DNA of 64,000 nucleotides from a virus (lineage: Duplodnaviria > Caudoviricetes): positions 1 through 64,000 of IMG/VR virus record IMGVR_UViG_3300048796_000029; one strand, given 5' to 3'. Numbering within the stretch: position 1 is the first letter of the stretch; every line of letters starts with the position of its first letter. Shown here one piece after another: positions 3,904-15,267 of this stretch. The notes beneath the pieces are model-generated. The model did no database searches and was not told the DNA's origin. It was given only the letters and a program-made list of their open reading frames with translations. The position numbers and the translations under genes are program-made.

Positions 3904-3978
3904 TGGCCTGTAGCTCAATGGCAGAGCCTTCCGCTGTTACCGGAATGGTTGTAGGTTCGAGTCCTACTGGGTCAGCCA
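3904..3978 (+). tRNA. tRNA-Asn(GTT)
   Basis: Cloverleaf with anticodon arm TTCCG-CTGTTAC-CGGAA, T-loop GTTCGAG, encoded CCA end. Confidence 0.92.
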
Positions 3979-4065: not shown

Positions 4066-4140
4066 GGGCGATTAGTTCAGCGGGAGAACACCAGCTTTGC
4101 AAGCTGGATGTCCACGGTTCGACCCCGTGATTGTCCACCA
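4066..4140 (+). tRNA. tRNA-Ala(TGC)
   Basis: Cloverleaf with CCAGC-TTTGCAA-GCTGG anticodon arm, G3.U70 Ala identity pair, encoded CCA end. Confidence 0.93.
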
Positions 4141-7952: not shown

Positions 7953-8609
7953 ATGCAGGTTTACGCCATAAACAATATAGCCAACGGTAAGATATATGTT
8001 GGGCAGACTATTCGTGATTTGGATGCCTACTTGCGCAGCGATGTTACTAGAGCCTTGAAGAGGACAAAAGATCGCAAGCCCTATTTATACGCTGCCATCC
8101 GTAAGTACGGCCCCAAAAACTTTACCATCCGTTGCATCCACAAATGCGCGGACAAAGCTGAGATGGATCGTGCGGAAAAAGCCTACATCAAACTTTTCGG
8201 AACGCAAGACCCAGAGCTAGGCTATAACCTAGCCGATGGCGGTGGTGGCTCTTTCGGGTATACACGGGTAATAACAAGCGAGCACCGAGAGAAGATAAGG
8301 CTGGCCGGGATCGGTAGAAAGCATTCAGAAGATACTAAGGCTAGGATGAGAGCAGCCGCTGTAGGTAAACCTAAATCTGAGGAGCATAAAGCTAAACTCA
8401 GGAAGCCTAAATCTGATGAAGCTAAAGCAGCTATGAAAGCCGCTTGGACCCTTGAGCGAAAGGCAAAGGGAACTTCATTTTCAAAAGGAAGGGTAATAAC
8501 GGAGGCTATACGAGAAAAAATACGTCAAGCAAATATAGCCTATCAAGTAAGAAAAAGACAGGAGGCTGAATGCAGATTGAATCCGATGGCATTGCCAGCG
8601 GCAGCCTAA
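7953..8609 (+). CDS. GIY-YIG homing endonuclease with NUMOD3-like repeats
   Basis: VYAINNIANGKIYVGQT; repeated HSEDTKARM/KSEEHKAKL/KSDEAKAAM. Confidence 0.88.
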   Translation: MQVYAINNIANGKIYVGQTIRDLDAYLRSDVTRALKRTKDRKPYLYAAIRKYGPKNFTIRCIHKCADKAEMDRAEKAYIKLFGTQDPELGYNLADGGGGSFGYTRVITSEHREKIRLAGIGRKHSEDTKARMRAAAVGKPKSEEHKAKLRKPKSDEAKAAMKAAWTLERKAKGTSFSKGRVITEAIREKIRQANIAYQVRKRQEAECRLNPMALPAAA

Positions 8610-8745: not shown

Positions 8746-8971
8746 CAACATGGGGGTCACTTGCTAGTGATAGCAAGCTGAGAACTTTCTCTGATTGACT
8801 TGGAAGCTGAAATGGCTAACAGGGGGCAAGCTGATAACTTCAGCAGCCTGAACGACTAAGTGAGAGAGCATCTGGAAACAGATGATGCGATAGTCTGACC
8901 TGCATGGAATAACAACATGCAGAGGTAAGCAGAAATGACTTGCCTCGGCGTAAATCGCCGATAACAAAGTG
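8746..8971 (+). mobile_element. Group I intron 1 of portal (226 nt, no ORF)
   Basis: 5' exon ends in U paired to IGS GGGUC; P7 GACTA/TAGTC; GCAGCCTGAACGACTAAG core motif; P9 stems; terminal G; removal restores the frame. Confidence 0.88.
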
Positions 8972-9029: not shown

Positions 9030-9264
9030 AAACTACTCATTACAAATGAGTTATTGGGTCACTCTGTAGTGATGCAGATGTGAGAATTTTCTCTGATTGA
9101 CTTGGAAGCTGAAATGGCTAACAGGGGGCAAGCGAAAGCAGCCTGAACGACTAAGTGAGAAAACATCTGGAAACAGATGATGCGATAGTCTGACCTGCAT
9201 GGAATAACAACATGCAGAGGTAAGCAGAAATGACTTGCCTCGGCGAAAGCCGATAACAACGGTG
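9030..9264 (+). mobile_element. Group I intron 2 of portal (235 nt, no ORF)
   Basis: Core nearly identical to intron 1; IGS UAUU-GGGU pairs both exons; terminal G; restores LEP|NVQRF. Confidence 0.88.
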
Positions 9265-13158: not shown

Positions 13159-13224
13159 ATGGCATACACTCCTGCTGGAAACGTCCAGTCAAACCTCCCT
13201 CAGTCCACCGTCAAGTTCTACGAT
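13159..13224 (+). CDS. Major capsid protein exon 1 (22 codons)
   Basis: AAGGA RBS; MAYTPAGNVQSNLPQSTVKFYD joins KKFRENL. Confidence 0.82.
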
Positions 13225-13450
13225 AAACGATAACCTTGTCGTAGTAAAACCTTCTCTGATTGACTTGGAAGCTGAAATGGCTAACAGGGCGCAAGCAATG
13301 CTTGACAAAAGCAACGCAGCGTGAGAGACTAAGTGAGAGGGCGTGAATTGATAACAATTCATGATGCGATAGTCCGAACATACGGGAATAACAACCGTAT
13401 GAGATCAGCAGAAATGACCTGATCCGTGCTCTGAAGCACGTAACACATTG
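13225..13450 (+). mobile_element. Group I intron A of capsid gene (226 nt, no ORF)
   Basis: P1 CTACGAT/GTCGTAG with U.G; shared core block; P7 GACTA/TAGTC; ends TAACACATTG. Confidence 0.88.
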
Positions 13451-14284
13451 AAGAAGTTTCGAGAGAACCTCAAGGCTCAAACACCTTTCATCGCCTGTTC
13501 CGAACGTCTCGATCTGCCCACCAAGAGTGGTAATCAGTACGAGATGTTCATGTACGTTCCGCTGGCTGCAAATCAGGCGCAGACCACGGAAGGTTCAGTG
13601 GGCAACAGTATCACCGTAAACGTTCTCCAGACCACCGCAACTATCGGAGAATACGCAGATTACGCCAACTTCTCCTCGCTGTCTCTGGCAACCGCCATCG
13701 ACAACACTGTCGAGAATGTGGCCCGCGAAATGTCCTACCGTCTGGGCGAGAGCCTGAGCGGTCTGGTTCGCGCAACTGCGGACGGTGCAAACGCGGTTGA
13801 CCCCAGCGTTCTCATCGCTCTCCCGGCAGCTTCGACTTCCAGCTTCACGACTCTCAGCCTGACCGAGATTCGTAACGCTGTCCAGTCCCTCGCTGGTCGT
13901 TCTGTGCGTCCGTACGACGAAGCATCCAAGGCATTCTGCGGTGTAATCCACCCGTTTGCTCTGGGCGACGTTCTTGCGGATACCGCGAACAACGCACCAA
14001 TCGACATCCTCAAGCACACTCCGGTGGGCCTTGCCAAGATGGAAGACCTCCTGAGCACCGACTTGACCGAGATGATCGAACTGCCTAGCTCTGGAGTTCA
14101 CTTCTTCCAGACGAATCAGGTCACCACGACCACGAACTACAAGGGCGTGGCTGGTCTGACGGCACTCCGTACCTACATCTTCGGGCGTGATGGCATCTAC
14201 AGCATCAAGCTCGGCGCTCAGGGCGACACGGAGTTCGGTGACGGCGAGTGGCAGAACATCAACTGCAACATCGTTCAGAACGCT
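13451..14284 (+). CDS. Major capsid protein exon 2 (278 codons)
   Basis: Follows the scaffold; EYADYANFSSL and HP motifs resemble P22/N4-gp56-type coat proteins. Confidence 0.82.
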
Positions 14285-14335
14285 ATACAGTAGGTTTGGC
14301 GTTCTTTTGAAGTTGTGTGGTAACCGTCCTAAATG
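14285..14335 (+). mobile_element. 51-nt core-less group I-like mini-intron B in capsid gene
   Basis: In-frame TAG (14291-14293); IGS 14290-14305 pairs 8 bp with each flanking exon; U.G at the 5' site; TAAC motif; terminal G; removal joins QNA|EPTVAD. Confidence 0.75.
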
Positions 14336-14416
14336 GAACCTACGGTTGCCGATCCCGAGGGGCTGATCCCCGGTTGGACTTCTTACAGAGTCCACTTCAC
14401 AACTTCGCTCGGCCCT
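14336..14416 (+). CDS. Major capsid protein exon 3 (27 codons)
   Basis: EPTVADPEGLIPGWTSYRVHFTTSLGP, with codon style like exon 2. Confidence 0.75.
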
Positions 14417-14643
14417 AAATGCTAAGTATTGGGGCGAGTAATAAACCTTCTCTGATTGACTTGGAAGCTGAAATGGCTAACAGGGGGCAAGCGCGGATGA
14501 AAATCCAAGCAGCCTGAGAGACTAAGTGAGAGGGAACCTGATAAGCACAGGTTATGCGATAGTCCGATCTTGCAGGAATAAAAACTGCAAGAGGTAGGCA
14601 GAAATGTCCTACCTCAGTGACGTAAGTTACTGATAACAATTTG
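14417..14643 (+). mobile_element. Group I intron C of capsid gene (227 nt, no ORF)
   Basis: P1 CTCGGCCCT/GGGGCGAG; P10 GTATT/GATAC; shared core; terminal G. Confidence 0.88.
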
Positions 14644-14694
14644 GATACGACCATCAGAATCCGCGAAATCGACGCCGCAAGCGCGATCAGCTAA
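14644..14694 (+). CDS. Major capsid protein exon 4 (spliced product predicted at 343 aa)
   Basis: DTTIRIREIDAASAIS-stop completes the frame. Confidence 0.75.
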   Translation, partial: DTTIRIREIDAASAIS

Positions 14695-14710: not shown

Positions 14711-14739
14711 TTGACAAAACACTCATTGTTTGGTACAAT
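14711..14739 (+). promoter_or_regulatory. sigma70-type promoter for the HNH gene
   Basis: TTGACA-17 nt-TACAAT; ATG 7 nt downstream suggests a leaderless or short-leader mRNA. Confidence 0.75.
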
Positions 14740-14745
14740 GTAATA

Positions 14746-15267
14746 ATGAGAAAACTAGACCTAGCAGGAAAACAATACGGAAGGCTGACACTTGTAAAAG
14801 TTGTCGGTGTGAATAAGGCAAAACAGAGAGTGTGGGAATGCGCTTGCGAGTGCGGTAAAACGCATATCGCGGCGCAAGGCCACCTCACAAAAGGTAAGGT
14901 CACCAGTTGTGGTTGCTTCCGAAAGGAACGCGCAACCACACATGGGATGACTCGCACCCCGGAATGGTTTGCTTACCAACACGCGAAGTCTCGGTGCCAA
15001 CCGGGACATGAATGTCATGAGCATTACTTTGATCGAGGTATAACTTTTGGGTTTACCTCCTTCATGGAGTTCTTTTCCGAGATAGGCTTACGCCCATCGA
15101 AGAAGCACTCCGTAGACCGTATCGACAACGATAGGGGATACGAACGGGGTAATGTTCGCTGGGCTACAAAATCCCAGCAAGAGCGTAACCGTAGATGTGA
15201 CAACTGCTGTGAACTAAAAAGCAGGATAGCAGAGCTTGAGAAGCGCATTCTCGAACTGACTAAGTAG
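14746..15267 (+). CDS. HNH homing endonuclease
   Basis: DLAGKQYGRLT...WECACECG; HSVDRIDNDRGYERGNVRWAT. Confidence 0.88.
   Translation: MRKLDLAGKQYGRLTLVKVVGVNKAKQRVWECACECGKTHIAAQGHLTKGKVTSCGCFRKERATTHGMTRTPEWFAYQHAKSRCQPGHECHEHYFDRGITFGFTSFMEFFSEIGLRPSKKHSVDRIDNDRGYERGNVRWATKSQQERNRRCDNCCELKSRIAELEKRILELTK

Follow-up and report, generated by a model that had tools for sequence, protein, structure and literature searches.

Group I introns are the textbook example of self-contained ribozymes, and the locus described here raises the question of how an insert that carries the splice-site signals of this class, but no catalytic core, could be removed from a phage gene. It lies in a window of 64,000 nt (positions 1 to 64,000 of IMG/VR record IMGVR_UViG_3300048796_000029, to which all coordinates refer), taken from a metagenome-assembled virus contig of 72,325 bases that is estimated to be 76% complete. 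A preliminary description of this DNA had proposed that the insert, a mini-intron in the capsid gene, is tethered to the next full intron downstream, intron C, whose core would be tuned to the 3′ splice site of the mini-intron and would remove it before removing itself. We analyzed the locus together with related capsid genes from viral and metagenome contigs, and the comparison suggests that the mini-intron is probably removed by the partner ribozyme.

Results

Organization of the interrupted capsid gene

The nearest named relative of the window, Tunturiibacter phage Tunturi_3, comes from Finnish soil and is an acidobacterial phage; its major head protein is encoded by a single uninterrupted ORF of 343 residues with the C-terminus ...NIVQNAEPTVADPEGLIPGWTSYRVHFTTSLGPDTTIRIREIDAASAIS, whereas in the window the capsid protein is split into four exons by intron A, the mini-intron and intron C (Table 1). 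The junctions were set with this intronless homologue (...NIVQNA|EPTV...SLGP|DTTIRIREIDAASAIS) and are in frame, and the predicted spliced sequences read CAGAACGCU|GAACCUACG between exons 2 and 3 and GGCCCU|GAUACG between exons 3 and 4. Both the capsid protein and the product of the HNH gene that follows were matched by PHROGs, and Pfam recognized neither of them. The HNH gene has its own σ70-like promoter (TTGACA...TACAAT, at approximately 14711–14739, as read from the sequence), and a GIY-YIG endonuclease gene with a NUMOD3 motif (7953–8609; Pfam E 1.6e-8) is located directly upstream of the intron-bearing portal gene, which it overlaps. Since both endonuclease genes are free-standing and lie beside introns without ORFs, the layout is that of collaborative homing. 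Two tRNA genes (3904–3975 and 4066–4137; Rfam 59.6 and 62.8 bits) are found upstream of the packaging and head genes.

The exact arrangement of the window is known from one metagenome contig, and the capsid genes of three loci that are 98–99% identical to it in exon 2 (L006, L007 and L034) contain neither the mini-intron nor intron C. These observations, the incompleteness of the contig and a block of 38 nt that is identical in its four group I introns and could mislead assemblers would all fit an insert that is never removed, either because it is a dead remnant in a capsid pseudogene or because repeated intron sequence was misassembled. The repeated core sequence, however, is absent from the mini-intron, and the relatives described below bear further on this explanation.

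Table 1. Features of the capsid region, with positions in the window.
Feature	Position	Strand	Remarks
Capsid exon 1	13159..13224	+	MAYTPAGNVQSNLPQSTVKFYD; residues 1–22 of the Tunturi_3 major head protein
Intron A	13225..13450	+	full group I intron, 226 nt; paralogue of intron C, core 78% identical
Capsid exon 2	13451..14284	+	PHROG major head protein, E 1e-10; spliced alignment to uninterrupted coding sequence
Last 8 nt of exon 2	14277-14284	+	AGAACGCU; 5′ strand of mini-intron P1
Mini-intron	14285..14335	+	core-less, 51 nt; exact insertion relative to Tunturi_3 and to L006/L007/L034
P10 strand of the mini-intron	14290-14297		GUAGGUUU
P1 strand of the mini-intron	14298-14305		GGCGUUCU
Tether strand in the mini-intron	14308..14317	+	UGAAGUUGUG; pairs with 14398-14407; in the MFE fold; covaries in relatives
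Proximal-helix strand in the mini-intron	14318..14327	+	UGGUAACCGU; directly 3′ of the tether; pairs with 14342-14351
Capsid exon 3	14336..14416	+	EPTVADPEGLIPGWTSYRVHFTTSLGP; peptide identical in Tunturi_3
P10 target in exon 3	14336-14343		
Proximal-helix strand in exon 3	14342-14351		
Tether partner in exon 3	14398-14407		
5′ strand of intron C P1	14408-14416		
Intron C	14417..14643	+	full group I intron, 227 nt; proposed helper ribozyme
Guide of intron C	14426-14438	+	GUAUU+GGGGCGAG
P3 of intron C	14446-14452/14528-14534		
P7 of intron C	14520-14524/14560-14564		
J7/9 of intron C	14566-14568		G-AU
Capsid exon 4	14644..14694	+	DTTIRIREIDAASAIS, then stop; identical to the Tunturi_3 C-terminus
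HNH endonuclease gene	14746..15267	+	free-standing; PHROG 374 HNH endonuclease, E 2e-41

The full introns of the family

Four paralogous cores, approximately 78% identical, are present in the contig, and the portal gene and the capsid gene have two each. The portal copies (8746–8971 and 9030–9264) are near-identical full group I introns separated by a micro-exon of 58 nt; each contains a P2-like hairpin (GUCACU...AGUGAU) that is absent from the capsid introns. P1 of intron C is formed by CUCG(G)CCCU at the end of exon 3 and GGGGCGAG (14431–14438), with U14416·G14431 at the 5′ splice site, P10 pairs GUAUU (14426–14430) with GAUAC (14644–14648), and the terminal base is G14643. The RNAalifold consensus of 17 members from the window and related contigs contains P3, P4, P5, P6, P8, P9 and P9.1, with compensatory changes in 32 of its 40 pairs; P7 (GACUA/UAGUC) makes the usual pseudoknot, and its outer pair covaries between G–C and A–U across a bulged base. 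Intron A, whose P1 is CUACGAU/GUCGUAG, aligns with the family and has P3–P9.1. The 3′ end of the full introns consists of UAACAA, a few bases and then G; (G/A)UAACAA is invariant in the alignment of the full introns of the family and lies 3–5 nt ahead of the terminal G.

Intron C and its siblings share with the small group I introns of T4 (td, nrdB and sunY) and of the Azoarcus tRNA-Ile gene (RF00028) the presence of P1, P3–P9 with the G-binding helix P7, P9.0, P10, a U·G pair at the 5′ splice site and a terminal G, within 200–235 nt. They differ in that the capsid copies lack P2 and have P9.1/P9.2 and the conserved UAACAA tail, and in their low score on the corresponding Rfam model, Intron_gpI: with relaxed filters on a stretch of 521 nt, intron C matched RF00028 end to end with only 21 bits (E 0.004) against a gathering score of 50 bits, and no intron was returned by Rfam when the gathering score was required or when E values of up to 10 were accepted over 30 kb. 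The conserved pairings identify the family as structured group I ribozymes, for which self-splicing is predicted.

Anatomy of the mini-intron

The mini-intron contains three in-frame stop codons, is preceded by U and ends in G14335. Its guide is a contiguous segment of 16 nt in which the P10 strand precedes the P1 strand, the same order as in intron C; P1, of 8 bp, is made with the end of exon 2 and has U14284·G14298 at the cut site, and P10, also of 8 bp, involves the bases with which exon 3 begins. All of the signals of a group I substrate, namely P1 with its U·G pair, P10 and the terminal G, are present. The mini-intron has no catalytic core (P3–P9) of its own and no similarity to the core of the family, and there is no room for one, because only 30 nt are left after the guide and these are used by the tether and the proximal helix described below.

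An insert of this kind might be skipped by the ribosome, as in the bypassing of T4 gene 60 and the mitochondrial ‘byps’, or removed by a protein factor of the host or the phage. Bypass elements such as that of gene 60 are similar in size, have an in-frame stop early after the take-off site and form a hairpin at the 5′ junction, and in all three respects the mini-introns (33–98 nt in the loci described below) look alike. Translational bypassing was nevertheless rejected, because the take-off and landing codons do not match (GCU before the insert, AUG before the GAA that follows it); nor does bypassing predict the 4–8 bp pairing between guide and exon, the universal U·G pair, the terminal G or the linkage to a downstream group I intron. 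We regard skipping or protein-mediated removal as highly improbable.

Pairing between the mini-intron and exon 3

The preliminary description had reported that positions 14309–14317 of the mini-intron (GAAGTTGTG) are complementary to positions 14398–14406 of exon 3 (CACAACTTC), directly 5′ of the P1 strand of intron C, and the sequence confirms that the two are exact reverse complements. A U·G pair (14308/14407) lengthens this helix, the tether, to 10 bp, so that it abuts the P1 strand. A Watson–Crick run of at least 9 between the mini-intron and exon 3 was obtained in 81 of 5000 dinucleotide shuffles (p ~0.016, for the window alone); this is a modest figure, and the strength of the tether comes from the relatives. 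The MFE fold of 14270–14445 contains the P1 hairpin of the mini-intron, the tether and P1 of intron C (z = −6.1).

The tether had also been thought to extend by UGG/CCA across a bulge. Such an extension is present, across a CTT bulge, but the bases concerned pair better within a second helix of 10 bp, the proximal helix, in which 14318–14327 pair with bases +7 to +16 of exon 3, and whose loop holds both the terminal G of the mini-intron, at the 3′ splice site, and the P10 target. The proximal helix overlaps the last 2 bp of P10, and the two pairings may alternate. Similarly, the TAAC described as following the tether is found at 14321–14324, but its position is not conserved in the relatives; it is most likely a remnant, considering that full introns end with UAACAA and that the mini-introns of L120 and L123 keep UAACAG.

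Mini-introns in related capsid genes

A protein-guided scan of viral contigs provided 80 capsid loci, a scan with a conserved core block provided 24 loci, and a metagenome scan with the 5′ region of intron C provided 23; each locus was aligned to an uninterrupted capsid coding sequence by a spliced aligner. Most capsid genes, including the three near-identical ones mentioned above, have no interruption at these positions, and others are heavily interrupted, with up to eight insertions per gene. At least 20 distinct core-less mini-introns of 33–98 nt were found in viral and metagenome contigs. All those examined follow a U, end in G and carry a contiguous P10+P1 guide fitting their own flanks, with a P1 of 6–12 bp whose first base, G, is opposite the last U of the exon, and a P10 of 4–8 bp; both pairings covary.

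A full intron was located 26–208 nt downstream of every resolved mini-intron, a linkage that the preliminary description had suggested looking for in related capsid genes. In reference coordinates, mini-introns at site 60 are followed by a partner at 86 or 268, those at 66 and 93 by one at 161, those at 155, 156 and 161 by one at 268 or 275, those at 900 and 921 by one at 981, that at 906 by one at 956, and those at 940 by one at 981 or 992; the distinct sites at which a mini-intron precedes a full intron thus number at least six. In the one remaining case, L092, the contig stops approximately 80 nt after the mini-intron and does not reach a partner. In L026, L028 and L054, nothing but the mini-intron and its partner was detected as an insertion in the aligned capsid gene.

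This linkage bears on the possibility that the mini-intron is spliced in trans by any paralogous ribozyme, such as excised intron A, intron C or the portal introns, while the helices help the short exon to fold, prevent exon skipping, set the timing or have some other role. The four cores of the contig could act without a tether, any core could in principle dock P1 because the mini-intron has a complete guide of its own, and the cores differ in their P9.0 dinucleotide (AU, AA or AC), only some of which the end of the mini-intron fits. Splicing in trans leaves unexplained, however, why every resolved mini-intron has a full intron of its own gene a short way downstream, why this is so even in L026, L028 and L054, and why the tether is aimed at the exon beside the P1 of the partner and covaries with it, as shown in the next section. 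We consider it unlikely.

Depending on the genome, sites 66 and 161 are occupied by a full intron or by a mini-intron with a similar guide; this alternation indicates an origin by core deletion, and the mini-introns are for this reason best read as core-deleted derivatives. Homologues of the mini-intron of the window with the same guide occur in the independent assemblies L120, L123, L129 and L090, and an assembly artefact was rejected on these grounds. A dead remnant is likewise very improbable, since P1, P10, the terminal G and exact in-frame junctions are preserved in mini-introns of many samples, and such conservation, together with the compensatory changes, requires selection on the RNA. 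In L120, L123 and L129, an ORF-bearing intron of 872 nt (site 949) is inserted between the site-900 mini-intron and the tether-matched intron at site 981; either this intron is removed first or the tether acts at long range.

The site-940 mini-introns of L087, L091, L095, L116 and L130 are longer (94–98 nt) and have, between guide and tether, an additional long hairpin (CUAGUAAAU...UAAUUACUAG) with a GC-rich inner stem, as well as a conserved UGUAAGA/UCUUACA helix with the 3′ exon. The capsid gene of L091/L125 (1044 nt) carries up to eight insertions, among them three mini-introns and several elements of 660–1670 nt; several of these large elements are without the P7 motif of the family and could be members of different intron families or carriers of endonuclease ORFs. 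A pattern scan for site-900 mini-introns gave no match, its spacing having excluded the type found in the window, and a scan with a bare 14-mer was non-specific, with at least 118 unrelated matches.

Covariation of the tether and the proximal helix

In most mini-introns, a stretch of the 3′ half is complementary to the exon 0–3 nt 5′ of the P1 strand of the partner (Table 2). In the window and in L102, L120, L088, L087, L095, L091, L093, the L112 group and L090, the partner is at site 981; the exon next to it specifies Thr-Thr-Ser by differing synonymous codons, and the tether of the mini-intron changes to match them. With partners at other sites, as in L026, L028, L054 and L107, the tether sequences are unrelated but obey the same rule of complementarity. 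Covariation of the tether, which the preliminary description had suggested looking for, is thus observed.

Table 2. Strands of the tether and the proximal helix in mini-introns and exons.
Helix	Locus	Mini-intron strand	Exon strand	Remarks
Tether	Window	GAAGUUGUG	CACAACUUC	
Tether	L102, L120	GAAGUUGUAG	UUACAACUUC	
Tether	L088	GUUAGUUGU	ACAACUAGC	
Tether	L087, L095, L091	GACGUAG(U)	(A)CUACGUC	
Tether	L093	UGACGUA	UACGUCA	
Tether	L112 group	GAGGUU	AACCUC	
Tether	L090	GAUGUG	CACAUC	
Tether	L026, L028	UAACUAGUC	GACUAGUUA	next to CAGGGU
Tether	L054	UAUCUaCCCAAG	CUUGGGccAGAUA	next to CUACGAU
Tether	L107	UAUUGGUUG	CAACCAAUA	partner-proximal
Tether		CCCAAG	CUUGGG	further pair
Proximal helix	L120	GGCAACU	AGUUGCC	
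Proximal helix	L129	AGCAACU	AGUUGCU	
Proximal helix	L123	GCAACACUG	UAGUGUUGC	
Proximal helix	L090	AACGG	CCGUU	

When the tails of the mini-introns were scored against the exon target classes, each tail's own class ranked first in 11 of the 14 rows of the matrix, and second or third, 1–2 points behind other classes, in the remaining three. The summed score of the tethers on their own targets was 225, compared with 158.6 ± 10.8 after permutation, and none of 200,000 permutations reached 225, a significance that is inflated by shared ancestry among the 13 systems tested, which cover seven partner sites. The distinct classes of tether sequence are independent compensations despite this kinship. 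Scores were those of a contiguous helix against a fixed target window, as RNAduplex applied to whole tails and exons over-extended the pairing through loops and returned uninformative p-values. The tether is only 5 bp long in some systems (L097, 66>161; L091, 156>268) and contains a C·A mismatch in L123 and L129. G·U pairs in the tethers argue for pairing at the level of the RNA rather than for complementarity of the DNA, and an inverted duplication of the DNA as the source of the complementarity was judged unlikely in view of these pairs and of the compensatory changes.

A helix of the proximal type, at +6 to +17 of the exon, was found in 16 of the 18 systems scored; L093 and L102 were scored on a different or weaker pairing. 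The helix is conserved and covaries in L120, L123, L129, L090 and L128. With the tether and the proximal helix taken together, the 3′ half of the mini-intron forms a splint between the beginning of the short exon and the sequence beside the P1 of the partner, which suggests that the mini-intron is tied to the next full intron by short helices.

Fit of the 3′ splice site to the partner core

The preliminary description had paired the dinucleotide of J7/9 with the two bases before the terminal G, and its base-pair arithmetic is correct. J7/9 reads G-AC in both portal introns, where GU precedes the terminal G, and G-AA in intron A, where UU does; in intron C, G-AU follows P7 and UU precedes the terminal G, and the AU of this core fits the AU before the terminal G of the mini-intron, which has no J7/9. 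Among 21 systems, which are partly redundant, the 3′ dinucleotide of the mini-intron complements J7/9 of the partner in 14 (permuted mean 7.9, p ~0.002), informative examples being L054 and L127, which combine AC with GU, and the window and L102, which combine AU with AU, so that the 3′ end of the mini-intron looks adapted to the partner core in general. The partner's own 3′ end complements its J7/9 equally often (14 of 21). The stronger proposal, that the core is tuned to the mini-intron rather than to itself, agrees with the window, L102 and L087/L130, but the relation is reversed in L026/L028, L093, L107 and L128, and it is a detail of certain lineages and not a rule.

Discussion

The comparative evidence sustains the preliminary description in part, namely in the linkage and the tether, whereas the tuning of P9.0 finds support in some lineages only. 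We think it fairly probable that the mini-intron of the window is a core-deleted, non-autonomous group I intron that is docked by its splint and for which the core of intron C carries out both transesterifications. For the broader proposal, a natural family of ribozyme-less group I introns in which a splint docks the guide hairpin on the next core, so that one ribozyme removes two introns in order, we lean slightly towards acceptance. From the pairings we infer catalysis by the partner core in cis, the three-dimensional arrangement and the order of excision, as follows.

The first part of the splint (14308–14317) would pair with the exon bases that abut P1 of intron C, and the second part (14318–14327) with the start of exon 3, presenting the 3′ splice site of the mini-intron in a loop. 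The P1 hairpin of the mini-intron would be joined to the 5′ end of the tether strand by 0–6 nt (2–3 nt in the window) and the exon strand of the tether to the P1 of the partner by 0–3 nt; both linkers being this short, the foreign P1 would hang where the guide of the partner joins the core, and the tether and the partner P1 would take the place of P2/P2.1 in larger group I introns. The P3–P9 core of intron C would then dock the foreign P1, cleave with guanosine and bind the terminal G of the mini-intron, and exons 2 and 3 would be ligated on the mini-intron's own P10. The tether would depart with the excised mini-intron, and intron C would splice itself then, or also. Excision of the mini-intron first would be the order in which the tether is useful, because after prior splicing of intron C the tether would no longer connect the mini-intron to the core.

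In a literature search that covered a minority of subscription journals, we found no natural core-less group I intron dependent on a neighbor. Among engineered systems, the closest analogues are the trans-excision-splicing ribozymes derived from Pneumocystis, Tetrahymena and Candida (PMC2532722) and the Tetrahymena ‘spliceozymes’ (PMC4094466). In these, as proposed here, a group I core cuts an internal segment from a core-less RNA and joins its flanks, and base-paired helices recruit the substrate. They differ in being laboratory constructs with the guide on the ribozyme, whereas the mini-intron is natural and has its own P1/P10 guide, and the ribozyme would here be an intron of the same transcript, recruited via exon sequence.

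The closest natural analogue is the exon skipping of Staphylococcus phage Twort orf142, a gene in which Landthaler and Shub, in 1999, reportedly described three group I introns. There too, closely spaced group I introns share one phage gene and a core can use the splice site of a neighbor; all of the Twort introns, however, have their own core and the cross-reaction is a side product, whereas for a core-less mini-intron it would be obligatory. Fragmented, trans-spliced group I introns are also known from organelles, for example in cox1 of placozoans and Gigaspora, and they resemble the present case in that a catalytic structure is built from separate RNA segments by pairing; in those a single core is split, whereas here a second pair of splice sites would use an intact neighboring core. 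Loss of the catalytic part and survival through the machinery of an intact relative are otherwise features of non-autonomous mobile elements and of spliceosomal introns, which have been proposed to derive from group II introns. Those examples involve transposases, or group II introns and snRNAs, and the present one would involve group I introns.

If this interpretation is true, group I introns can lose their autonomy in the way that transposons do and that has been suggested for spliceosomal introns, and the mini-introns would provide a group I counterpart of the shared-catalyst step proposed for the origin of spliceosomal introns. They would offer a natural design for cis- and trans-excision ribozymes in which the guide is on the substrate. 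They would also account for short inserts containing stop codons that disrupt gene calls in phage genomes rich in introns, and the splint would be the means by which core-deleted mini-introns persist in an essential phage gene.
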